From positions 1-61,612 of the IMG/VR virus record IMGVR_UViG_3300045972_000408: a DNA stretch of 61,612 bases; one strand, written 5' to 3'. The translations under genes were made by a program, and so were the position numbers. Below the pieces are notes generated by a model. The model saw nothing but the letters and a program-made list of their open reading frames with translations. It made no database searches and had not been told where the DNA came from. Shown here piece by piece: positions 2,138 through 60,452 of this stretch; positions within the stretch are counted from its first letter, which is position 1, and each line of letters begins with the position of its first letter. Origin of the DNA: a virus. Taxonomy: Duplodnaviria; Caudoviricetes.

Positions 2138-2319
2138 ATCGTTTCTTTCCGCCGAAGCTTGAAGTCTTCGAGGTCAGCCCGATCGAAGGCCATGCGGCGA
2201 TATTTCTTGCCGCGACCGATATTAATGAAGGTGATAGTGCCGTCGGCGACATGGCCGCGCAAGGTTTTCACAGAAATGCCGAGTTCTTGCGCCGCCTGGG
2301 CGGGCGAAAGTGTGCTCAT
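2023..2319 (-). CDS. HTH excisionase
   Basis: LSPAQAAQELGISVKTL MerR-like HTH, overlaps int start. Confidence 0.85.
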   Translation of the reverse strand: MSTLSPAQAAQELGISVKTLRGHVADGTITFINIGRGKKYRRMAFDRADLEDFKLRRKETICPSTSTKPRLSTTSTSGSVVVGFMARLSAQTNERPRR

Positions 2320-2960
2320 GGCGCGCCCCAGATGGTCTTGAAATTGGTGTCGAAACGGTCGCAGACGCCCGGTCCGCGCAAAAGGATCAAATCATTGTCC
2401 TGTTGCTTGAGGCCGCTCGCGCTGAAATTCGCCCCGCCGGTGCGAAGGGTCCGTTCGTCGATGCAGTAGGATTTCAGGTGCATCAGCGTGTGGTCATCCG
2501 CCTTGAAGCGAATCTCGACATTGCGGCTTTCGTTCAGCTTCCCGAGCGCCTCCTTCGGGCGTCCAAATGGCTCGGGGCCGCTGGAATCGCGATAGACGCG
2601 GATCTTGACGCCGCGTCCCGCCGCTGCGGTCAGGGCCTCAATGACGGCGACGTCGGTGAGGACATAGGCCGCCATGTCTATTTTTTCGCGCGCGGCCGTG
2701 AGTTGCGCGACGTCGATCTTTTCGAGGTTTTCGGTTGGGGCGTAATGGGTCTCGACTGTCAGCGGATCGGCCTGCGCCGCGCCGGCGGCTGCAAAAGCGA
2801 GGATTGTGGCGATCTGGATAGGCATGCGGGCCTTCATGATCTGTTCGTCCATGTCGAGCAGGGTTTCATAACGAGGGCCCGGCGGCCTGCGATTGGTTTG
2901 GCGCGGCGGGTTGAGGACGATAACGAACCAGCCAAAGACGGCAAAGGCGAGAAGTGGCAT
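2316..2960 (-). CDS. Phospholipase D-family (Nuc-like) nuclease, probably exported
   Basis: Single HLKSYCID (HxKxxxxD) plus GGANFS; hydrophobic/signal segments before catalytic domain; alternative start 2825. Confidence 0.9.
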   Translation of the reverse strand: MPLLAFAVFGWFVIVLNPPRQTNRRPPGPRYETLLDMDEQIMKARMPIQIATILAFAAAGAAQADPLTVETHYAPTENLEKIDVAQLTAAREKIDMAAYVLTDVAVIEALTAAAGRGVKIRVYRDSSGPEPFGRPKEALGKLNESRNVEIRFKADDHTLMHLKSYCIDERTLRTGGANFSASGLKQQDNDLILLRGPGVCDRFDTNFKTIWGAP

Positions 2961-2966
2961 GGCTGG

Positions 2967-4757
2967 TCACTCCGCTGCGAAAAGGGTTGCGATCGGCTCG
3001 CTCACGGGCTGGCGCTTGCGCGTCGTCGCGCGACACTCGTCCGGGGTGTAGTTCGCGGCGACAAGGGCCTTGGCCATGACGGGGCTGACGCTGTTGCCGC
3101 ACATGCGGACGGAGGCCGTTCCGGTCAGCTTTGTGCCGTCCGGGCGGCGGTCGATGACGTAGGAATCGGGGAAGCCCTGCGCGCGGAAAAGTTCGCGCGG
3201 ACGCAACATTCGCATGCCGATGTCGACGATCTCATAGGGCTCGCCGTGGACCATCACGAGGCCGAAGCGGTCGCGGGTCGGGACGGTATGCATCGGCTCG
3301 GCCGGGCTGACGCCGTCCTTGTCGTTGCCGTAATATTTGACCAGGAAGGCGCGCACCTCGGCGCTATGCGTCCCTTGCGCCGTCACGGTCGGATGCGGCG
3401 TCTCGATATCGCTGGCGCGGCGATCCGAGCCCTTGAGGCTCAAGAGGTGCGCCGAAACGACGCCCTGTTGCGCGCCGGTCGCGGTGACCGTCGAGACCGG
3501 TTCGTCCGCCGGTCGCGAGCCGGGGCATTTGCCGCCATTGTGCTGGGCGAGGAAGGCCGCGACGACGCCATGACGCGGCGCGCCAGCCATGACGGTGTGA
3601 AGGGGTTCGTCCGGCAGGTGGCCGACTGAGTTCTCGCTGAACTTGGTCAGGTGGACGGCGGCGAGGACAGAATCGGCCTTGGCCGTCACTGTCTGCAACG
3701 GCTCGTCCGCCGATCGTGGGCGCGATTGGCCGGCGCGACCGCCGCAACCGGCGATGACAGGAACAATGATCGCGTTCTGATCTTTTTTCGACGCCGTGAC
3801 GGTATGCAGGGGCGCATCGGCGGGGCGCGTCGCGCCGCCCTGCTGAGCATAGGTGACGACCGGGACGACGAGGCCGTGCGCGATCCCGCCGCCCGTAACC
3901 GTGCCGAGCGGCTCTTCCATCGGATACTCGCGGCGGCCGCCGGAAAACCCGTGCGCGACCGAAATAATAAACGGCTCGGCCGCGTCGATGACATAGCGCT
4001 GCACGCCCTTGGCGATGCGGGCCATCGTCGCCTCGGCCAGCGGGCGGTTGACGCCGACGGCGCGGCCTTCCTCTTTGGTCAAAAAGATTGAATGGCAGGG
4101 CAGCGTCCAGTCGATGATTTCTGCCGCGGTGCGCCAAGGCTGGAGCTTGCCGCTCTTGACCTCTTCGGATTTCGGATTGCCGTGCGTCGGCGTCGGCCAG
4201 ACGATGGGGCGGCCGTCGCAGCGGGCGACCAGAAACAGGCGCTTGCGGATGGTGGGCGCGCCATAGTCGCAGGCGCGCAGCTCGCGCCACTCGACCTTGT
4301 AGCCGAGCTTTTTGAACTCGCCGACCCATTTGCGGAAGGTCTCGCCCCGACGCCCAGCTGCGGGCCTATCTGTTTCGTCGAGCGGACACCAGTCCTGAAA
4401 CTCTTCGACGTTTTCGAGCAGGATCACGCGCGGGCGGCGCCGTTGCGCCCATAGTACGACAACCCACGCCAGGTCGCGGATGTTGCGCGACAGCGGCTTG
4501 CCGCCCTTGGCCTTGGAGTGGTGCTTGCAGTCCGGCGAGAACCAGGCGAGGCCGATTTGGCGGCCCGGCATGACCTCGTCGGGATCGATCTGCCAGATGT
4601 TCGAATTCAGGTGCAGGGTATCTGGGTGATTGACCTCGTGCATGGCGATGGCGTCGGCGTCGTGGTTGATCGCGACATCCGGCGAGCGTCCGAGCGCCAT
4701 TTCGATGCCGGTCGAGGCCCCGCCCCCGCCGGCGAAGGAATCGATGATGATTTCCAT
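2967..4757 (-). CDS. DNA cytosine-5 methyltransferase
   Basis: FAGGGG, SPDC, ENV, RKRLF, GNSV motifs. Confidence 0.95.
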   Translation of the reverse strand: MEIIIDSFAGGGGASTGIEMALGRSPDVAINHDADAIAMHEVNHPDTLHLNSNIWQIDPDEVMPGRQIGLAWFSPDCKHHSKAKGGKPLSRNIRDLAWVVVLWAQRRRPRVILLENVEEFQDWCPLDETDRPAAGRRGETFRKWVGEFKKLGYKVEWRELRACDYGAPTIRKRLFLVARCDGRPIVWPTPTHGNPKSEEVKSGKLQPWRTAAEIIDWTLPCHSIFLTKEEGRAVGVNRPLAEATMARIAKGVQRYVIDAAEPFIISVAHGFSGGRREYPMEEPLGTVTGGGIAHGLVVPVVTYAQQGGATRPADAPLHTVTASKKDQNAIIVPVIAGCGGRAGQSRPRSADEPLQTVTAKADSVLAAVHLTKFSENSVGHLPDEPLHTVMAGAPRHGVVAAFLAQHNGGKCPGSRPADEPVSTVTATGAQQGVVSAHLLSLKGSDRRASDIETPHPTVTAQGTHSAEVRAFLVKYYGNDKDGVSPAEPMHTVPTRDRFGLVMVHGEPYEIVDIGMRMLRPRELFRAQGFPDSYVIDRRPDGTKLTGTASVRMCGNSVSPVMAKALVAANYTPDECRATTRKRQPVSEPIATLFAAE

Positions 4758-9673: not shown

Positions 9674-10798
9674 TCAAACCCTCATCGGCATGAGGACGAT
9701 CAGCAGATCGGCGTCGGTGGCGGTGCGGAGGATGGTGGGGCTTTGGCTGTCGTTCAGTTCGATCCGGGCGTTGTCGCCGTCGAGCGCCGACAGGGCGTCG
9801 GCGAGGTAGCGGCTGTTGAAGCCGATCTCGATATGCGCGCCGGAATAGTCGCTCTCGACCTCCTCCGCCGCGCTGCCGACATCCGGATTGGCGACGGAGA
9901 GGGCCAGCGTCGGGCCTTCGAACACCAGCTTGACCGCCTTGCCGCGCTCGCTGGAGACGGTCGAGACGCGCTCGGCCGCGCTGGCGGTTTCTCCGCACGA
10001 GACCAGGGCGATGTTGACGTTCTGGGTCGGGATGACGCGGGTGTAATCGGGGAAGCTGCCATCGATCAGCTTGGAGAGGATGGTGGTTTCGCCCGAGCGG
10101 ACCATGATCTTGGTGTTGCTCAGTTCGATGTCGACGTGCGGCGCGCCGGCCTTGTCGTCTTTGGCGGCGGCCTCGGCGAGGCGCTGGATTTCGACGCAGG
10201 CGAGGCGCGGGACGATCACGCCGAAGCTGGATTCGATGCCGTCAGGCAAGGGCGCCGCTATGCGCGCGAGGCGGTGGCCATCGGTCGCGACCAGGCGCAG
10301 CTCGGTCTCGTCGGCGTGGAAATAAATGCCGTTGAGGTAGTAGCGGGTTTTCTCGGTCGATATGGCGAACGAGGTCTTCTTGATCGCCCGCGCGAGGCCT
10401 TCGGCCGGCAGGGTGAAGCGGTGGGTGATTTCGCCCTTTTCAAGCGTCGGGAAATCGCTGGACGGCAGGGTCGCGAGATGAAACTTGGCGCGGCCGGCGC
10501 GGATGACGAGGCGCGAGGTCACTGCGTCGAATTCGAGCGTGACCGCGTCGGCGGCGAGCTTGCGGACGATCTCGGCGAAGGTCGCGGCCGGGACGGTCAG
10601 GTCGCCGGGTGCGGTGATGTCGGCTTCGAGCGCGGTGTGCGCCTCGAGGTCGAGATCGGTGGCGGCAAGCGTGAGTTTTTCGCCGCTGGCGGTCAGGCGC
10701 AGATTGGCGAGGATCGGGATCGTGGTGCGCTTCTGCGCCACCCGGGAGACGAAATCGAGCGCTTTTCCGAGCGCGGCGCGGGAGAGGGTGAGTTTCAT
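9674..10798 (-). CDS. dnaN: DNA polymerase III beta sliding clamp (phage copy)
   Basis: TIPILAN, ATDLD, RYYLNG, VATDGHRL, FPDY, IGFN.RYL, LMPMRV. Confidence 0.97.
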   Translation of the reverse strand: MKLTLSRAALGKALDFVSRVAQKRTTIPILANLRLTASGEKLTLAATDLDLEAHTALEADITAPGDLTVPAATFAEIVRKLAADAVTLEFDAVTSRLVIRAGRAKFHLATLPSSDFPTLEKGEITHRFTLPAEGLARAIKKTSFAISTEKTRYYLNGIYFHADETELRLVATDGHRLARIAAPLPDGIESSFGVIVPRLACVEIQRLAEAAAKDDKAGAPHVDIELSNTKIMVRSGETTILSKLIDGSFPDYTRVIPTQNVNIALVSCGETASAAERVSTVSSERGKAVKLVFEGPTLALSVANPDVGSAAEEVESDYSGAHIEIGFNSRYLADALSALDGDNARIELNDSQSPTILRTATDADLLIVLMPMRV

Positions 10799-21752: not shown

Positions 21753-22039
21753 ACGAGATCGTATTGAACGAGCGCGAACAGAAGTTCTACGCTGATCTGT
21801 TTGACGATCTTTGCGAAGTCGTCGCGCGCGCCGCTGGCAGAGCGGATCGCGAGGGTTTGCCGGTCCCGGATTTTTGCGGATCGATCTGCGCTGCCTTCAC
21901 CCAGTTGAGCTTTGAGGTGTTGGTCGAGGCGATGACCCCGGACCAGTCGCGCGCCGCCATCGTCAAGGCGGCCGACCACATGTTCGCCACCGCCGCTCTC
22001 GGCGAGACGAGGGGACCGCATGAACGCGCTGTCCTATGA
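21749..22039 (+). CDS. Hypothetical protein
   Basis: ATGA coupling. Confidence 0.6.
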   Translation: MNEIVLNEREQKFYADLFDDLCEVVARAAGRADREGLPVPDFCGSICAAFTQLSFEVLVEAMTPDQSRAAIVKAADHMFATAALGETRGPHERAVL

Positions 22040-24629
22040 CGAGTTCCTGCGCGCCAAGGTGCCGATTGCCCGGCCGGGGGATGTTTCGGTCGCGGCGATC
22101 GAGACGCATTTTTCCGCAAAACCGCATCAGGCCGCTTGCGCGCGGTGGATGATCGCGGGCGGGCGCCGGGCGCTGTTCGCCTCGTTCGGGCTCGGCAAGA
22201 CGCGCATCCAGCTCGACGTCATCCGCTGCCTGATCGCGATGCATGGCGGGCGGGGGCTGATCGTCATTCCGCTCGGGGTTCGTCAGGAATTTGTGCGCGA
22301 TGCGCTGGCCATGGGCGTCGAAGTCACATTCGTGCGGCGGATCGAGGAGTGCGGCGAGAGCGGCATTTATTTGACCAATTACGAGACCATCCGCGACGGC
22401 AAGATGGACCCGGCCGATTTCACCGCCGCGAGCCTGGACGAGGCGAGCGTGTTGCGCGGGTTTGGCGGCACCAAGACCTTTCGCGAGTTCATGCGGGCGT
22501 TCGAGCCGGTGCGCTTTCGCTTTGTGGCGACCGCGACGCCTTCGCCCAACGATTATATCGAGTTGCTGGCCTATGCCGCGTTCCTCGGGATCATGGATGT
22601 CGGGCAGGCCAAGACGCGGTTCTTCAAGCGCGATTCGACCAATGCCGACAAGCTGACCCTGCATCCGCACAAGGCGGAAGAGTTCTGGCTTTGGGTCTCG
22701 TCCTGGGCGCTGTTCGTGCAGCGGCCGAGCGATCTGGGTTTTGACGACGCCGGCTATTCCTTGCCTCCGATGGAGGTGCATTATCATTCGGTCCAGACCG
22801 ATCTGATCGGCAAGGACGCCGATCGCGGCGGGCAGATGATGCTGATCCGCGATCATGCCGTCGGCGTGCAGAACGCCGCGCGCGAAAAGCGCGAGACGCT
22901 GCCGGCGCGCATCGAGGCGATGAAGGCCATTCTCGCCGCCGATCCGGACAGCCATTTTCTGATCTGGCACGATCTGGAGGCCGAGCGTCACGCGATTGAA
23001 AAGGCGCTGCCGGGCGTCGTGTCGGTGTTCGGGTCGCAGGATCTTGAGGTTCGCGAACAGCGCATCGTCGATTTCTCGGATGGCAAGTTCAAATATCTGG
23101 CGGCGAAGCCGGTCATCGCCGGTTCGGGCTGCAATTTCCAGCGCCATTGCCACAAGGCGATTTTTCTCGGCATCGGCTTCAAGTTCAACGATTTCATTCA
23201 GGCGATCCATCGCATCCAGCGGTTTTTGCAGAGCGAGACCGTCGAGATTCACATCATCCACGCCGAGAGCGAAGAGGCCATTTTGCGCACGTTGCTGCGC
23301 AAGTGGGAACAGCACAAGATCATGGTGGCCAAGATGTCGCAAATCATTCGGGATTATGGGCTTTCTCACGCAAGCATGGCCGCCGCGCTCGAGCGTTCGA
23401 TGGGCTGCAACCGGATCGAGGTCGCGGGCGATAAATATAAGCTGGTCAATGCCGATTGCGTAGAAGAGACGCGGCGCCTGCCGTCCGACAGCGTTGGGTT
23501 GATCGTGACGTCCATTCCGTTCTCGACGCAGTATGAATATTCGCCGAGCTATAATGACTTCGGCCACACCGACGATGATGCGCATTTCTGGGCGCAGATG
23601 GATTATCTGATCCCGGAATTGTTTCGGGTGATGATGCCCGGGCGCGATGCGGCGATCCATGTCAAGGACCGGATCATTCCCGGCGGCGTGTCGGGCCTCG
23701 GTTTCCAAACGCTTTCGACCTTTTCCTATGACTGCATTTCCGCTTTCAGGCGGGCTGGTTTTGCCTTTCTGGGCGAAAAAACCATCACGACCGATGTGGT
23801 GCGCGAGAATAACCAGACCTATCGCCTCGGCTGGACCGAGCAATGCAAGGATGGCTCGCGCATGGGTTTTGGCGTGCCGGAAAAGCTGTTGCTGTTTCGC
23901 AAGCCGCCGTCGAGCCGGGATAATGGCTATGCCGATGTTCCCGTGGTCAAGGACAAGAAATGGCGCATGGACGCGGTTGGCGAGACGCGCGACGGCGGCG
24001 GCGAGATCGTCCAGGCGGCGACGCCGGGCTATTGGCGCAACGAGGGCGGTTATTCGCGGGCCCGGTGGCAATTGGATGCGCATGCCTATACGCGCTCAAG
24101 CGGCGACCGGCTGATCGACGCCGACGAGCTGCTGGGCTTTTCGGCCTCGGACGTGTTCAAGGTCTGGAAAAAGTTCTCTTTGGAGACGGTCTATAATTTC
24201 GAGCATCATGTGCGGATCGGCGAGGCGTTCGAAGAGCGGGGCCAGCTTCCCGCCGATTTCATGCTGATGCCGCCGCATTCGCGCCATCCCGACGTGTGGA
24301 CCGATATTACCCGCATGTTGAGCGTCAACACGCTGCAATCTGCCAAGGGGCGGGAAATGCACCTGTGCCCGCTCCAGTTCGACATTGTCGATCGCGCGAT
24401 CAACCAGTGGTCCAACCCTGGCGATGTGGTGTTCGACCCGTTCGGCGGCATGATGACCGTGCCGATGCGGGCGGTGAAATTCGGGCGCGTCGGCTGGGGC
24501 TGCGAGTTGAACCATCGCTATTTTCTCGACGGGGTCAAATATGTCGAGGCCGAGGCGCGGGCGCTGGACGCGCCGACGCTGTTCGACGCGCTTGAGGCGG
24601 AACAGGCGAGCAAGGTGGCTGCGGAATGA
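22020..24629 (+). CDS. SNF2-like helicase fused to N4/N6 DNA methyltransferase
   Basis: GLGKT, LDEAS, TATP, Q..HR..RF; TSIPF (motif IV variant), HLCPLQ, DPFGG. Confidence 0.92.
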   Translation: MNALSYDEFLRAKVPIARPGDVSVAAIETHFSAKPHQAACARWMIAGGRRALFASFGLGKTRIQLDVIRCLIAMHGGRGLIVIPLGVRQEFVRDALAMGVEVTFVRRIEECGESGIYLTNYETIRDGKMDPADFTAASLDEASVLRGFGGTKTFREFMRAFEPVRFRFVATATPSPNDYIELLAYAAFLGIMDVGQAKTRFFKRDSTNADKLTLHPHKAEEFWLWVSSWALFVQRPSDLGFDDAGYSLPPMEVHYHSVQTDLIGKDADRGGQMMLIRDHAVGVQNAAREKRETLPARIEAMKAILAADPDSHFLIWHDLEAERHAIEKALPGVVSVFGSQDLEVREQRIVDFSDGKFKYLAAKPVIAGSGCNFQRHCHKAIFLGIGFKFNDFIQAIHRIQRFLQSETVEIHIIHAESEEAILRTLLRKWEQHKIMVAKMSQIIRDYGLSHASMAAALERSMGCNRIEVAGDKYKLVNADCVEETRRLPSDSVGLIVTSIPFSTQYEYSPSYNDFGHTDDDAHFWAQMDYLIPELFRVMMPGRDAAIHVKDRIIPGGVSGLGFQTLSTFSYDCISAFRRAGFAFLGEKTITTDVVRENNQTYRLGWTEQCKDGSRMGFGVPEKLLLFRKPPSSRDNGYADVPVVKDKKWRMDAVGETRDGGGEIVQAATPGYWRNEGGYSRARWQLDAHAYTRSSGDRLIDADELLGFSASDVFKVWKKFSLETVYNFEHHVRIGEAFEERGQLPADFMLMPPHSRHPDVWTDITRMLSVNTLQSAKGREMHLCPLQFDIVDRAINQWSNPGDVVFDPFGGMMTVPMRAVKFGRVGWGCELNHRYFLDGVKYVEAEARALDAPTLFDALEAEQASKVAAE

Positions 24630-29206: not shown

Positions 29207-30982
29207 ATGCCGCCAGTCTGGACCACGGCGATCCCGGACTGGCGCGAACGCCTGATCGAGCGCCGCCCGATCATCCCCTTCGCCCCGCTCTTTCCGCAAG
29301 AGGCGGACGCGGCGAGCGAAATCTTCAACGATCTTCCGGTCGTGGACGTCGCCGGCAAGCCGCGCTTCGGCGACATCGGCCGCCCCTGGGTGTTCGACTT
29401 CGTCCGCGCCGTCTTCGGCTCCTATGACGCCGAGGCCGGGCGCCGCCTGATCCAGTATTATTTCCTGCTGATCGCCAAGAAAAACGGCAAGTCCACGCTC
29501 GCCGCCGACATCATGGTGACGGCGCTGATCCGCAATTGGCGCGAGTCGGGCGAATTCTACATCCTCGCCCCGACCAAGGAAGTCGCCGACAACAGCTACA
29601 CGCCGGCCGCCGACACGGTGCGCGAGCATCCCGTCCTGCGCAGCATTTTAAAACCCTGCGCCGGGCGCGTGATCGAACACCGCAACACTGGCGCGACGCT
29701 CAAAGTGGTCGCGGCGGACAGCGAAACGGTCGGCGGCAAAAAGACCATCGGCCTGCTGGTCGACGAGCTGTGGCTGTTCGGCAAACGCGCCAATGCTGCG
29801 AACATGCTGCTCGAGGCCGAAGGCGGCCTGGCGTCGCGCCCCGAAGGTTTTTCGATCTACCTGTCCACCCATTCGGACGGCCCGCCGCAAGGCGTCTTCA
29901 AGGATAAGCTCGAAGAATTCCGCGCCATCCGCGACGGAAAGATCGACGATCCGAAAAAGCTTCCGGTCCTCTACGAATTCCCGGAGCCGCTGCTGAAGGA
30001 CGACGCCTTCGGCGAGCGCAAGCACTGGTATATCACCAACCCCAACCTGGGCGCCTCGGTCGATCCGGAATACATCGCCGGCAAGATCGCCGAGGCCCAG
30101 CGCGCCGGCAAAGCCCAGCTCGCGGGCGTCTACGCCAAGCATCTGAACGTCCAGATCGGCAACGGCCTGCGCGCCGATGGCTGGGCTGGCGCCGAGCTCT
30201 GGCCGCGCCGCGCCGAAAAGCTGACGCTCGAAGACATTCTCGACCGCTGCGAACTGGTGACGGTCGGCCTCGATGGCGGCGGCCTCGACGATCTGCTCGG
30301 CCTCGCCGTCATCGGCCGCGAGCGCGGAACCAAGCGCTGGCTCGCCTGGGGCAAGGGCCTCATCTCGACCATCGGCGTCGGGCGGCGCAAAGGCAACGCC
30401 GTCGATTATCTTGAGTTCAAGAAGGCCGGCGAACTCACGGTTTTCCGCTTCGACCTCGACATCGCCGACCTGTCCGCCGGCGATGACGATCTGCGCGAGC
30501 TGATCGACGACGCCCTGCCCCCGCAAAAAACGCCGGAAGGCTGGACGCCGGACGTCGCCGAGATCGTCGGCGTCATCAAGAATATTCACGAGCGCGGCCT
30601 GCTGGCGAAAGTCGGCGTGGACGCCATGGGCATCGGCACCATAGTCGATGCGCTCGCCAGCGTCGGCATCACGCAGGACGAAGAGCTGCTGTTCGGCGTC
30701 CGCCAGGGCATCGGCCTCATGGGCGCCTTCAAGACCGTCGAGCGCAAGCTCGCCGACGGCTCTTTCGCCCACGGTGGCGGCCCGCTGCTGTCATGGAGCG
30801 TCGGCAATCTGAAGCTGATCCAGACGCCCACGGCGGTCCGCGTCGCGCGCGAGGAAAGCGGCTTTGGGAAAGTCGACGTGGCCATGGCTTTGTTCAACGC
30901 CGCCGCACTGATGACCGCCAACCCAGAACTGCCGGACGCCTCAGTCTATACCGCCGATCGCGGGCTGGTCGTGTTCGGCTGA
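29207..30982 (+). CDS. Terminase large subunit
   Basis: AKKNGKS Walker A, LVDELW Walker B, GLDGGGLDD, KVD nuclease. Confidence 0.95.
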   Translation: MPPVWTTAIPDWRERLIERRPIIPFAPLFPQEADAASEIFNDLPVVDVAGKPRFGDIGRPWVFDFVRAVFGSYDAEAGRRLIQYYFLLIAKKNGKSTLAADIMVTALIRNWRESGEFYILAPTKEVADNSYTPAADTVREHPVLRSILKPCAGRVIEHRNTGATLKVVAADSETVGGKKTIGLLVDELWLFGKRANAANMLLEAEGGLASRPEGFSIYLSTHSDGPPQGVFKDKLEEFRAIRDGKIDDPKKLPVLYEFPEPLLKDDAFGERKHWYITNPNLGASVDPEYIAGKIAEAQRAGKAQLAGVYAKHLNVQIGNGLRADGWAGAELWPRRAEKLTLEDILDRCELVTVGLDGGGLDDLLGLAVIGRERGTKRWLAWGKGLISTIGVGRRKGNAVDYLEFKKAGELTVFRFDLDIADLSAGDDDLRELIDDALPPQKTPEGWTPDVAEIVGVIKNIHERGLLAKVGVDAMGIGTIVDALASVGITQDEELLFGVRQGIGLMGAFKTVERKLADGSFAHGGGPLLSWSVGNLKLIQTPTAVRVAREESGFGKVDVAMALFNAAALMTANPELPDASVYTADRGLVVFG

Positions 30983-31004
30983 ACTACAAAAGAGAGATTT
31001 GTTC

Positions 31005-31478
31005 ATGACGACGACGATTACGGTGCAGTCGCACAATTACCCCGCCCGCGTGCGGACCGTCGATAGATGGGAAGGCAACGTTCGCGCCGACGATCTTGTG
31101 CTTCGTCCCGAGGACGGGGTCCGGACGTTCCATTGCACCACGACCCGCACCATCGAAGTCGTCGATCTCGAATATGGCGAAAAGATCGCCGAACACGAAA
31201 AGCGCCTGGCCTTTGGCGCCGCCGTCGAAGCCCTGAAAGCTGGCCAGCGGGTCGCTCGCGCTGGCTGGAATGGCAAGGGCATGTTCCTGTTTCTGGTCAA
31301 CGGCTCGCGCTTCAAGGTGAACCGCGAGCCTTTGCTTTCCATTCTCGGCGAAGGAACCGAGGTCGATTATCACGCGCACATCGATTTGAAGACGGCGCAA
31401 GGCTATGTCGTTCCATGGCAGCCGTCGCAGGCCGATGTTCTCTCGAATGACTGGCAGATTGTTTCTGCCGTAGGATAA
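31005..31478 (+). CDS. DUF2829/Tad2-family anti-defence protein with extra N-terminal domain
   Basis: FG.A.EALK.G.RVAR.GWNGKGMF...VPW.PSQ.DVLS.DW. Confidence 0.88.
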   Translation: MTTTITVQSHNYPARVRTVDRWEGNVRADDLVLRPEDGVRTFHCTTTRTIEVVDLEYGEKIAEHEKRLAFGAAVEALKAGQRVARAGWNGKGMFLFLVNGSRFKVNREPLLSILGEGTEVDYHAHIDLKTAQGYVVPWQPSQADVLSNDWQIVSAVG

Positions 31479-31537
31479 CCCGCTCTCGAAAAGGGCCGTC
31501 GACCACGGATGAACTGGCGACGCCCAGCAGGTCAAGT

Positions 31538-31637
31538 TTCGAGCGGCGGAAGCTGTGAACCCCGCGGCGTCACGTTGGGGAGAGCGCGGAAGTCATCACG
31601 ACGCTGGAATGACACCTACACGCCCGGCCCGCTCGAA
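31538..31637 (+). ncRNA. Candidate structured RNA
   Basis: 9-bp closing stem TTCGAGCGG/CCGCTCGAA with internal hairpins. Confidence 0.35.
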
Positions 31638-31663
31638 TTCACACCATCCCCCAGCGAGGCGCG

Positions 31664-32938
31664 ATGTCCAAGCATAAGCGCCAGTCCAAATCGGGCCAGC
31701 CGAAAAAGAAAAGCTGCGACGTCTCCGGCGTCGCCAGCCACGCCTTTTCCGCCCATTCGATCAGCGGAATCGACGTCAACCCCGCCACCGCGCTCAGCGC
31801 CACGGCGGTGCTCGCCTGCTTCCAGATGCTATGCGAGGATTTCGCCAAACTTACGCCAGTCCTTTACCGCAAGGACAAGGACGGAGGCCGCATCCCGGCG
31901 GTCGATCACGAACTTTACGACCTGCTCTACAGGCCCAATTCGTACCAGAATTATTTCGAATGGGCGGAGATGAAGCAGTTTTGGTTGCTCGCCCGCGGCA
32001 ACGCCTATTCGGTTAAAATCCGCAACGCACGCGGCAAGATCATCGCCCTCATTCCCGTCTCTTCCGATTGGGTGGCGATGTGGGAGGCCCCGGACGGCGC
32101 CCTGTTCTACCGCGTCACGCCCAACGGCCTGCACATGCGGGCGATGCTCGCCGACGAGCCCTTCCTGATCCCAGCCGAAGACATGCTGCATATCAAGGGC
32201 TTCAGCATGAACGGCCTGCTCGGCGCGTCGCGCCTCGTGCTGGCGAAGGAAGCCATCGGCCTGTCGCTGGCCTATGAGCGCCAGGCGGCGCAATGGATGG
32301 GCCAGGGCGCGAGCGTCAACGGCGTGTTGACGACCGACAAGAGCCTGACGCCCGAAGCCGCCAAGCGCATGGCGCAAGACTGGCGCGATACGAAAAGCGG
32401 CCTGCAAAACGCCGGCAAGGTGTTGGTGCTCGAACAAGGCCTGAAATGGCAGAACACGGCGATGACGGCGGTGGACGCCGAATTCCTCGCCTCGCGCGGC
32501 TTTGGGGTTACGGAAATCGCGCGTGTCTGGCGCGTCCCCGCGCACATGATCGGCGACCTGTCGAAATCGACCAACAACAACATCACCCAGCAGGCGCAGG
32601 AATATATCAACCTGACGCTGTCGAGCTACACACAGCGCTGGGGCTGGAAACTCGACGTGGACTTCGGCCTTCGCGCGCAGGGCATTTTCCTCGAATACGA
32701 CCTGTCGATCCTGACCCGCGCCGACGTCACCCAGCGCTACGCCAATTACGCGCGAGGCATCGCGGGCGGGTTCCTGACCCCCAACGAAGCGCGCGTCGAC
32801 GATGGCAAGAACCCTGTCGCGGGTGGCGACAAACTCCTCCAGCCGTCCAACCTCGCCGCCGCTGGCTCGCAATCGACCGGCGGCGCGGCGGACGGCGGCG
32901 GCAGGCCGGAAGACGGCAGCGCTGAACAGAAACTCTGA
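31664..32938 (+). CDS. HK97-family portal protein
   Basis: RPN.YQ, GNAY, LHIK, LEQG, EIAR..RVP, TPNEAR. Confidence 0.95.
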   Translation: MSKHKRQSKSGQPKKKSCDVSGVASHAFSAHSISGIDVNPATALSATAVLACFQMLCEDFAKLTPVLYRKDKDGGRIPAVDHELYDLLYRPNSYQNYFEWAEMKQFWLLARGNAYSVKIRNARGKIIALIPVSSDWVAMWEAPDGALFYRVTPNGLHMRAMLADEPFLIPAEDMLHIKGFSMNGLLGASRLVLAKEAIGLSLAYERQAAQWMGQGASVNGVLTTDKSLTPEAAKRMAQDWRDTKSGLQNAGKVLVLEQGLKWQNTAMTAVDAEFLASRGFGVTEIARVWRVPAHMIGDLSKSTNNNITQQAQEYINLTLSSYTQRWGWKLDVDFGLRAQGIFLEYDLSILTRADVTQRYANYARGIAGGFLTPNEARVDDGKNPVAGGDKLLQPSNLAAAGSQSTGGAADGGGRPEDGSAEQKL

Positions 32939-59632: not shown

Positions 59633-60015
59633 TGAAAATTTGCGATCTGTCATGGACCGGCGGCTTTTGGTATCTCGGCTCGCCCTATTCCAAATATCCA
59701 TCCGGGCCGGAAGCGGCGTTCTTGTGCGCCGCCGCTATCGCGGCAGAGCTGTTGAAACAGGGGGTGCCGATCTTCTGCCCGATCGCACATTCCCACCCGC
59801 TTGCGCAATACGGTCAGATCGACCCGCTCGACCATAAGATATGGCTTCCAGCGGATCGCCCGATGATGGATGCGGCAACGGGTTTGATCGTCGCTCAGAT
59901 GGAAGGGTGGCGCGAAAGCTATGGCCTGACGCATGAAATCGAGGTTTTCACAGCGGCTGGAAAGCCGGTGCTTTATCTCGACATGCGCGAATACACCCTG
60001 TCGGAGCGGCCGTAA
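59632..60015 (+). CDS. DUF1937 (nucleoside 2-deoxyribosyltransferase-like fold)
   Basis: YLGSPYS, PIAHSHP, GW.ES.G...EI. Confidence 0.88.
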   Translation: MKICDLSWTGGFWYLGSPYSKYPSGPEAAFLCAAAIAAELLKQGVPIFCPIAHSHPLAQYGQIDPLDHKIWLPADRPMMDAATGLIVAQMEGWRESYGLTHEIEVFTAAGKPVLYLDMREYTLSERP

Positions 60016-60452
60016 TGAGTGAGAGCAAGCCGACCAATCCCAAAGACCAGATCGCGGTGGCGAAACTGCCGCTGCACCTGGTCCCCTCGACGCTGCCGAT
60101 CTATGCCGCGCTGGCCTTCGCCGAGGGCGCGTCGAAATACGGCGCCTATAACTGGCGAGCGGCCGGCGTGCGCGCGAGCGTCTACAGGAGCGCGCTCGAC
60201 CGGCATCTGGCCAAATGGTGGAACGGCGAGGACGCCGACCCAGCCACCAACGTCCCGCATCTGGCCTCGGCGCTGGCCTGCATCGGCATCATTCTCGACG
60301 CCCAGCTTTGCGGCAAACTGACGGACGACCGGCCTCCGCCGGCGCCGATGGGCGAGCTGATCGACGACGCCGAACCGATCATCGCCGAACTTTTCCGCAT
60401 GTTCGCGGATCGGAAACCGAAGCACTGGACCACAGCCGACAAGATCGACTGA
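60015..60452 (+). CDS. DUF5664 dATP/dGTP diphosphohydrolase-domain protein
   Basis: TNPKD, K.PL.LVP, GA.KYG.YNWR, RH...W..GED.D, HL, DDR. Confidence 0.9.
   Translation: MSESKPTNPKDQIAVAKLPLHLVPSTLPIYAALAFAEGASKYGAYNWRAAGVRASVYRSALDRHLAKWWNGEDADPATNVPHLASALACIGIILDAQLCGKLTDDRPPPAPMGELIDDAEPIIAELFRMFADRKPKHWTTADKID

Follow-up and report, generated by a model that had tools for sequence, protein, structure and literature searches.

A phage Tad2 protein with an undescribed N-terminal domain that may act as a second immune-signal sponge

Phage-encoded sponges that trap nucleotide immune signals were counted as seven families in a review (PMC13712596). Traits common to sponges are that they are short phage proteins, assemble as homo-oligomers, form deep, positively charged pockets at the protomer interfaces and sequester an immune nucleotide while leaving it uncleaved (10.1101/2025.07.12.664507). 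Sponges also occur fused to one another: Tad2-Acb4, Tad2-PF21825 and Acb4-PF21825 fusions were published, the first of which is frequent, and PF21825 was picked by a Pfam query for families fused to Tad2 or Acb4 and then shown to be a 3' cyclic ADP-ribose (3'cADPR) sponge, Sequestin (Tal et al., 10.1101/2025.07.12.664507). Among further anti-defence proteins, TadIV-1 is a helical dimer (PMC13243611), and Tad3 to Tad8 are summarised as binders of ThsB or ThsA. Here, a fusion gene is described that lies in a virus genome (Duplodnaviria; Caudoviricetes) recovered as IMG/VR record IMGVR_UViG_3300045972_000408. All 61,612 nucleotides of this record were analysed and are referred to as the window. 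The open reading frame (ORF) at 31005..31478 (+ strand) extends from an ATG at 31005 to a TAA at 31476-31478 and encodes 157 residues followed by the stop codon. It consists of an N-terminal domain (NTD; residues 1-57, 31005..31175), a linker (residues 58-67, GEKIAEHEKR, 31176..31205) and a Tad2/DUF2829 domain (residues 68-157, 31206..31475), all on the + strand. We consider it about an even call that the product is a bifunctional anti-defence protein, encoded by a moron between terminase and portal genes, in which the NTD is an undescribed second module and most likely a sponge.

Judged by its sequence, the C-terminal module belongs to the Tad2 family and retains the main residues contacting glycocyclic ADP-ribose (gcADPR). 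The original prediction, which was made from the DNA letters alone, had recognised a DUF2829 signature in the C-terminal ~90 residues, and PF11195 indeed matches residues 70-153 (E 4.9e-25; 88.3 bits against a curated cut-off of 25; profile positions 3-73 of 73), a result that was confirmed on the DNA. Comparison with solved Tad2 chains by phmmer retrieved ModTad2 (9eib_A, E 1.6e-19), 8v3e_E (1.7e-19), Gp34.65 of phage SPO1 (8sme_A, 1.5e-14) and SptTad2 (8wjd_A, 1e-12), together with 8wje (SPO1) and 8kbi (HgmTad2). The main gcADPR contacts of SPO1 Tad2 are W25, N26, W73 and D79 (10.1101/2023.05.01.538930), which correspond in a pairwise alignment to W88, N89, W138 and D144 of the protein described here. 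W88, W138 and D144 are invariant and N89 is nearly invariant in 31 fused homologues, and three minor SPO1 contacts are changed (T78 to A143, D67 to Q132 and H71 to V136). In the full-length AlphaFold model the Tad2 part was predicted with moderate confidence (predicted local distance difference test, pLDDT, 62-80) as helix 70-78, strands 81-85 and 93-104, helix 110-114, strands 119-129 and 135-138, helix 142-146 and strand 150-155. This order fits the published Tad2 fold, in which a helix at the N-terminus precedes a sheet of five antiparallel strands whose loops hold two short helices (10.1101/2023.05.01.538930). The Tad2 module is ordinary and the interest of the protein rests on the NTD as a candidate new family.

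The two modules belong to one reading frame. The longest ORF starts with a TTG at 30999, and in the alignment M1 of the homologues falls on the ATG at 31005; a purine-rich GAGAG at 30992..30996 (+ strand), located 8 nt 5' of this ATG, was recognised by inspection as a probable Shine-Dalgarno-like stretch. No in-frame ATG, GTG or TTG was found in the ORF between codons 56 and 92, and the first in-frame start past codon 56 is the ATG of codon 93, which lies within Tad2 and 3' of the W88/N89 ligand loop. An internal start that yields Tad2 alone, which the original prediction had named as a reason to give up its two-domain reading, is ruled out by this stretch of codons. As the same NTD also precedes Tad2 in 32 proteins among the 120 best relatives listed for the whole protein, the ORF is taken to encode one protein and not two. 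Within the window, it contains both the sole NTD match and the sole Tad2 match.

The separate, beta-rich unit of ~60 residues that had been proposed for the N-terminus was recovered in structure predictions. AlphaFold places strands at residues 3-8, 14-22, 25-33, 39-44 and 48-54; residues 1-50 reached a pLDDT of 86-94 in the full-length model, whereas residues 59-64 of the linker are disordered (pLDDT <50). Folded alone on an alignment of 95 sequences, the NTD gave the five strands with a pLDDT of 93.3, and the family profile recognises the window copy with an E-value of 1.7e-28. The linker itself differs in length and composition between aligned fused homologues. A word-based search with residues 1-62 detected eight stand-alone proteins of 66-74 residues with 50-68% identity (E 1e-16 to 5e-8), some of which are encoded on contigs of 18-64 kb. 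A profile search of 1.84 billion representatives extended the family to 130 clusters at E <= 1e-3 (48 at E <= 1e-10), of which 114 have representatives of at most 110 residues and most are stand-alone phage proteins of 54-110 residues. The original prediction had suggested such a search with the N-terminal part by itself, and had regarded an absence of homologues or of a fold as telling against a domain; homologues are numerous and the fold is confident. In 162 of 169 NTD proteins compared, the domain begins at residues 1-3, and the seven with a later start look like mis-called starts or fragments. Conserved positions comprise M1, T2 (94/94), T3, H10, P13, V16, D20, F42, Y/H43, T45, T47, R48 and D/E54, and position 12 carries an aromatic residue (86 of the 95 members have Y, W, H or F there).

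The distribution of the family is overwhelmingly viral. Look-alikes of the NTD found with a protein language model (Atlas) are clusters of viral hypothetical proteins (62-83% viral), and of 401 genomes sampled from one bacterial class the profile matched a single one, namely the centre genome itself. The sole cultured representative among 50,697 phage records and BFVD is gp50 of Caulobacter phage Seuss, a hypothetical protein of 71 residues whose gene closes the late block, following the lysis genes and directly preceding a terminator. With a second subtype of the domain as query, the phage records gave no match. A structure search of BFVD returned only family members, this Seuss protein (E 1.4e-5) and one unnamed protein (E 3.2e-4). 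Taken together, the sequence record indicates that the NTD is an autonomous, conserved phage domain family found almost only in viral sequence.

Known annotation does not cover this family. The N-terminal ~60 residues of the window copy matched nothing in Pfam or PHROGs at E <= 1; Pfam searches with the 95 members at E <= 10 gave single matches at chance level and no family matched by more than one member; and four stand-alone members had no match in PHROGs. The sole PHROG match of the family is a weak one of protein P0207 to phrog_11999, a family of unknown function (E 4.9e-4). The scans of Pfam and PHROGs rule out that the NTD is a known family of either collection. The profiles of Acb4 (PF13876), Sequestin (PF21825) and Acb2/Tad1 (PF24729) were considered and rejected, as they leave the NTD residues unmatched and, in fusions, match C-terminal parts only. 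At the level of sequence, the NTD profile found no match among PDB entries (best E 1.1). The literature was also searched: eleven short NTD motif strings had no match in six supplementary files of Tal et al. (covering Lockin, Sequestin and Acb5), and six of these strings had none in three files of PMC12393519, both being text searches and not alignments. A description of the NTD was not found in the sponge and anti-defence literature searched, of which the coverage was limited. On the best reading the domain is undescribed; it may still be identical with one of Tad3 to Tad8, which were considered by way of an editorial summary.

An anti-defence role of the NTD is suggested by the proteins to which it is joined. 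Besides the 32 fusions with Tad2, the best 120 listed relatives of the whole protein comprise 67 short Tad2 proteins (<=112 residues), and 3 of the best 80 Tad2 loci in IMG/VR carry the NTD fusion. A search for alternative fusions had been suggested: the NTD also precedes the Acb2/Tad1 hairpin domain PF24729 in P0142 (47.5 bits), P0162 (33.9 bits) and L128:3878-4297 (38.7 bits; cut-off 27), the last of which is an uninterrupted ORF of 139 residues on a 54-kb viral contig, and Sequestin PF21825 in P0150 (57.4 bits; cut-off 24.8). With all three sponge families the NTD is always the N-terminal partner. A split counterpart of such a fusion exists at L010, where an Acb2/Tad1 hairpin gene (L010:5721-5945; PF24729, 74.6 bits) is located just past a phage lysozyme and 55 nt upstream of an NTD gene (L010:6001-6240). 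Among 19 loci with stand-alone NTD genes, this was the only one with an adjoining sponge gene; a weak match at L018 was not confirmed by Pfam. The remaining long NTD matches continue into tails that are rich in Ala/Pro or lack annotation, and the phage-like N-terminal fusions contained no Pfam family outside the sponges. The census of fusions is incomplete, in that a word-based search for NTD fusions of 86-275 residues gave three proteins, and the library of representatives at 50% identity appears to hide Tad2 fusions, given that no scanned match of at least 106 residues has PF11195.

Several observations made during this census stand apart. Six entries (L006:1324-1773, L008:6001-6477, L009, L015, L016 and P0134) combine the NTD with Ala/Pro/Glu-rich low-complexity tails of 80-100 residues and have no folded partner. 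An epimerase-like protein has a partial NTD match at its C-terminal end, which was not counted as a fusion of the phage kind. P0184, a DUF7507/CARDB/DUF11 repeat protein of 1620 residues, matches the NTD profile weakly in nine stretches (E 1.7e-8 overall) and was likewise left out of the count; this match may point to distant kinship with Ig-like surface repeats or to a compositional effect of Thr-rich sequence. Finally, 17 of the best 120 relatives and 14 of the 80 IMG/VR loci have a different N-terminal module before Tad2, which measures 55-75 residues and ends in a motif similar to G-Y-x-S-W-S-P-K (for example P0019, P0027 and P0038; L044, L049 and L054). This second module had no Pfam match at E <= 10, where it was tried as Acb4, and no match among PDB sequences. 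It does match the N-terminal parts of phrog_872 and phrog_9467, as well as phrog_32732, whose C-terminal part is Sequestin-like. By the same fusion logic it counts as a further candidate without annotation, provided that it is not a divergent Acb4.

A reading without any role in immunity would be that the NTD is a generic small accessory protein of phages and that its fusions with sponges are incidental joins of neighbouring morons. Small accessory genes do cluster in phages and can fuse through the loss of a stop codon, the neighbours at L010 illustrate such an arrangement, and the fusions with partners other than Tad2 number only four. We give this reading very little credence, as the partners belong to three different sponge families to the exclusion of other Pfam families, the order of the domains is constant and the Tad2 fusions were kept over ~50-60% identity in 32 proteins. 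In a tree of 163 NTDs, the Tad2-fused ones fall into two distant parts and the window copy groups with stand-alone proteins. A single clade of Tad2-fused NTDs was rejected by the approximately unbiased test on a subset of 57 rows (p = 0.012), with the group having been named after the tree was seen. As the Tad2-fused NTDs do not form one clade, repeated fusion is suggested, and the Tad2 fusions are probably of more than one origin.

The surroundings of the gene were examined next to those of its relatives. The claim that it is located between terminase and portal was verified for the coordinates and for both flanking genes. Upstream, the large terminase gene TerL (29207..30982, + strand; PF03354 and PF20441) stops 22 nt before the ATG; downstream, the portal gene (31664..32938, + strand; PF04860, E 1.7e-86) follows after a non-coding gap of 185 nt (31479-31663). 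The GC content at third codon positions is 0.71 in the fusion gene, compared with 0.86 in TerL, 0.84 in portal and 0.86 in capsid. For comparison of the junction, 14 of 18 loci that were retrieved with the portal as query were used, and L022, L027, L030 and L037 were dropped because of little or no sequence upstream of the portal. TerL and portal homologues were both present in 12 of these 14 loci; in most, the two genes abut or are less than ~30 nt apart, and an NTD or Tad2 ORF was found in the 3.4 kb upstream of the portal in none of the 12. A conserved home of the gene at the terminase-portal junction is thereby ruled out. Conversely, no relatives of the structural genes of the window were found beside the fused homologues L040-L042 or beside L128. 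Stand-alone NTD genes occupy varied late-region sites across unrelated phage types: at L005 the gene follows a P22-like portal, at L007 it lies with a Mu-like head gene on one side and a tail gene on the other, and at L010 and L018 it comes after lysozymes. With its low third-position GC content and a junction that is empty in relatives, the gene looks like an inserted moron; it behaves as a mobile accessory gene and not as a fixed structural gene. The 185-nt gap may be an insertion scar, given that TerL and portal abut in related phages. A simple scan of the + strand detected no promoter-like or terminator-like sites around the gene.

Structural modelling suggests that the NTD forms a homodimer. 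Two co-folded copies, the only number offered, reached an ipSAE of 0.65 (median of three runs) compared with 0.01 for the best of three controls, with at least 91% of contacts in common between runs and a partner pLDDT of at least 81. In a calibration, the mark was reached by 20 of 30 solved homo-pairs and by 1 of 23 single chains; these counts are rough because our own alignment was used. In the model, strands 1 and 5 each pair with their counterpart in the other chain (1 with 1', 5 with 5'), and the interface holds loops 9-12 and 44-46 as well as residue D54. Positions in the predicted interface are more conserved than those elsewhere (mean entropy 1.83 versus 2.61 bits, one-sided p = 0.001); among the 13 NTD positions with the strongest conservation, 9 belong to this interface. 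Such a conserved interface would fit a sponge-like pocket between the chains and would equally fit a conserved dimer contact.

The dimer, which is modelled with confidence and pairs the conserved strands 1 and 5 with their counterparts, also speaks for the idea that the NTD has no target of its own and is a dimerising or scaffolding module, which cross-links sponge oligomers or places them, for example on or in the virion for early delivery. The stand-alone copies in structural and lysis regions (P22-like portal, Mu-like head and tail genes, lysozymes), the long Ala/Pro-rich tails of some members and weak fold matches of Ig/FN3-like or jelly-roll-like type would suit such a role. We regard it as quite improbable nonetheless. 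The 114 of 130 representative clusters with at most 110 residues have, at that length, no fused partner to scaffold; the positions of the genes vary by phage type, unlike those of a fixed structural gene; and 12 relatives build the same head module without the NTD. Moreover, Tad2, Acb2 and Sequestin oligomerise unaided and need no dimeriser (PMC13712596, Table 1).

For the sponge reading of the NTD, three of the recognised traits of sponges can be listed: the domain is short and mainly viral, it is fused to known sponges and it is predicted to be a homo-oligomer. Several points weigh against it. The NTD is net acidic, with a median charge of -3, a negative charge in 93% of the 95 members and -2 in the window copy, and R48 is the only well-conserved basic residue besides H10. 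No solved structure backs a ligand-binding fold: Foldseek against PDB gave a best E of 0.2, and the top result of VIA-align among 48,161 chains was TRAP with a Z of 5.4, a value under the typical chance level of the tool (one chain at Z >= 5, none at Z >= 8, next row Z 4.7). These weak fold matches show neither a new fold nor the exclusion of a family. The homodimer is predicted, a matter of model confidence and not a measurement. In the dimer model, T44-T46 contact D54 of the partner chain, and as the conserved residues are situated in the predicted interface, their conservation could serve dimerisation alone. The fusions to sponges other than Tad2 are few, the four proteins listed above. The gene is part of a late operon, while for published sponges early abundance is discussed as a need (10.1101/2023.05.01.538930); the original prediction had the protein expressed together with late proteins that trigger immunity, for which gene position is the sole basis. 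Lastly, the sponge fusions equally fit a protein-binding inhibitor.

This last alternative holds that the NTD binds a host immune protein, be it an effector or a sensor (for example a TIR protein), in the manner of Tad3 to Tad8, so that the fusion combines a sponge with a direct inhibitor. The genomic and fusion evidence is the same as that for the sponge, and an acidic domain without a conserved basic cluster suits a protein surface better than a phosphate pocket; homodimeric direct inhibitors exist in Tad3 and Tad8 (PMC13728456). It has no known target, the most conserved surface of the NTD is buried in the predicted dimer, and the published fusion partners of sponges, as far as the available text of Tal et al. 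extends, are all sponges themselves (10.1101/2025.07.12.664507). We therefore rate a protein-binding NTD as unlikely, if not strongly so. The original prediction that the N-terminal unit is a new anti-defence or second-ligand sponge domain thus holds as far as autonomy, the lack of a Pfam model and the fusion to three unrelated sponge families are concerned, whereas the choice of a sponge over a protein-binding inhibitor did not receive the same backing. A sponge mechanism of the NTD is plausible and unproven. In its specific form, to which we assign a somewhat less than even chance, the NTD would be an eighth family of phage immune-signal sponges, a minimal all-beta domain of ~57 residues that may resemble TRAP and would, as a dimer or in larger rings, capture a nucleotide signal between chains by means of H10, the aromatic residue 12, T45, T47 and R48.

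Under the sponge reading, the following picture can be proposed. A temperate, HK97/GTA-like tailed phage would encode a two-module anti-defence protein, the Tad2 part of which may assemble like the solved Tad2 tetramers and sequester the Thoeris signal gcADPR and possibly other nucleotide signals. The NTD would dimerise through strands 1 and 5 and act as a second, independent anti-defence unit, most likely as a sponge for a different nucleotide signal near the dimer interface. At this putative site, the conserved loops S-H-N-(aromatic)-P (residues 9-13) and T-T-T-R (residues 45-48) of both chains are predicted to meet. A single polypeptide could in this way counter two signalling pathways at once, as has been reported of Tad2-Acb4 fusions.

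Should this interpretation of the NTD hold, an anti-defence family would be added and sponge modules would form a wider mix-and-match network than described. An eighth sponge family that is used alone or plugged onto Tad2, Acb2 or Sequestin would widen the range of signals that one protein covers. If the NTD binds an immune protein instead, the gene would join a sponge to a direct inhibitor in a naturally occurring fusion, a combination that is apparently also new. The domain was missed by the Pfam-based fusion screen and is nearly absent from cultured phages; the screen of Tal et al. could not list it because Pfam families were queried. Being small, with a confident fold and clear conserved residues, the NTD is testable with few constructs.

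The window is the whole 61.6-kb IMG/VR record with an estimated completeness of 76%. Its first genes encode an integrase, a PLD-like protein beside a C5 methylase, a LexA-like repressor, replication proteins and a second methylase. The co-directional late block starts with HNH, a possible small terminase, TerL, the fusion ORF, portal, an S78 protease and an HK97-type capsid protein, and continues with head and tail completion proteins, tail tube, chaperones and a long ORF of tape-measure size. Other features of the window can be noted in passing. Beside the integrase, the PLD-like protein adjoins the C5 cytosine methylase of 596 residues (2316-4757, - strand), and a protein of 869 residues (22020-24629, + strand) has an N6/N4 methylase domain confined to its C-terminal end; both may represent cargo of the phage with an anti-restriction or epigenetic role. 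The phage also encodes a DNA polymerase III beta clamp (9674-10798, - strand), which is full-length and contains each of the three Pfam domains. Near the end of the record (60015-60452, + strand), a dATP/dGTP diphosphohydrolase N-terminal domain was detected (PF18909, E 2e-23), a family linked to phage nucleotide-pool or modified-base pathways.

Among known proteins, the closest to the one described here is canonical Tad2 (SPO1 Gp34.65, PDB 8SME-8SMG; ModTad2, 9EIB), with which the C-terminal 90 residues share the four contacts and the predicted order of secondary structure elements. Canonical Tad2 is a single domain of ~87-97 residues, and the present protein adds a folded N-terminal domain of 57 residues and a linker. 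For the NTD itself, TRAP/MtrB (PF02081) is a lead only. It provides the best structural match (2zcz_A, Z 5.4, root-mean-square deviation 2.6 A, 52 residues aligned) and is the only named family among the language-model look-alikes (rank 22, score 0.83), both values being below the trust level of the respective tool, and none of the 95 members matches PF02081 at E <= 10. TRAP binds tryptophan between the subunits of its ring. Lockin resembles the NTD as a small, mostly beta phage protein that lacks domain annotation and is seldom met in sequenced model phages; it is a hexameric sponge of Thoeris I/II, while the NTD is a predicted dimer, and the Lockin proteins of 97-112 residues in the supplement of the paper contain none of the NTD motifs by text search (10.1101/2025.07.12.664507). 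Acb4, an alpha/beta protein of 96 residues (PMC11722364), is unlike the all-beta NTD of ~57 residues. Sequestin is again a short, mostly stand-alone, dimeric phage protein that was recognised through its fusions to known sponges, and it differs in being alpha-helical, whereas the NTD is all-beta, and in that 3'cADPR binding was shown (10.1101/2025.07.12.664507). The fusions of Tal et al., such as Tad2-Acb4 of Pasteurella phage Pm86, have the same composition of Tad2 and a second small, mostly stand-alone phage domain. In the present protein, Tad2 is joined to a domain other than Acb4 (PF13876) or Sequestin (PF21825), which, unlike their partners, has no Pfam model; as with the published partners, this domain recurs with several sponge families.

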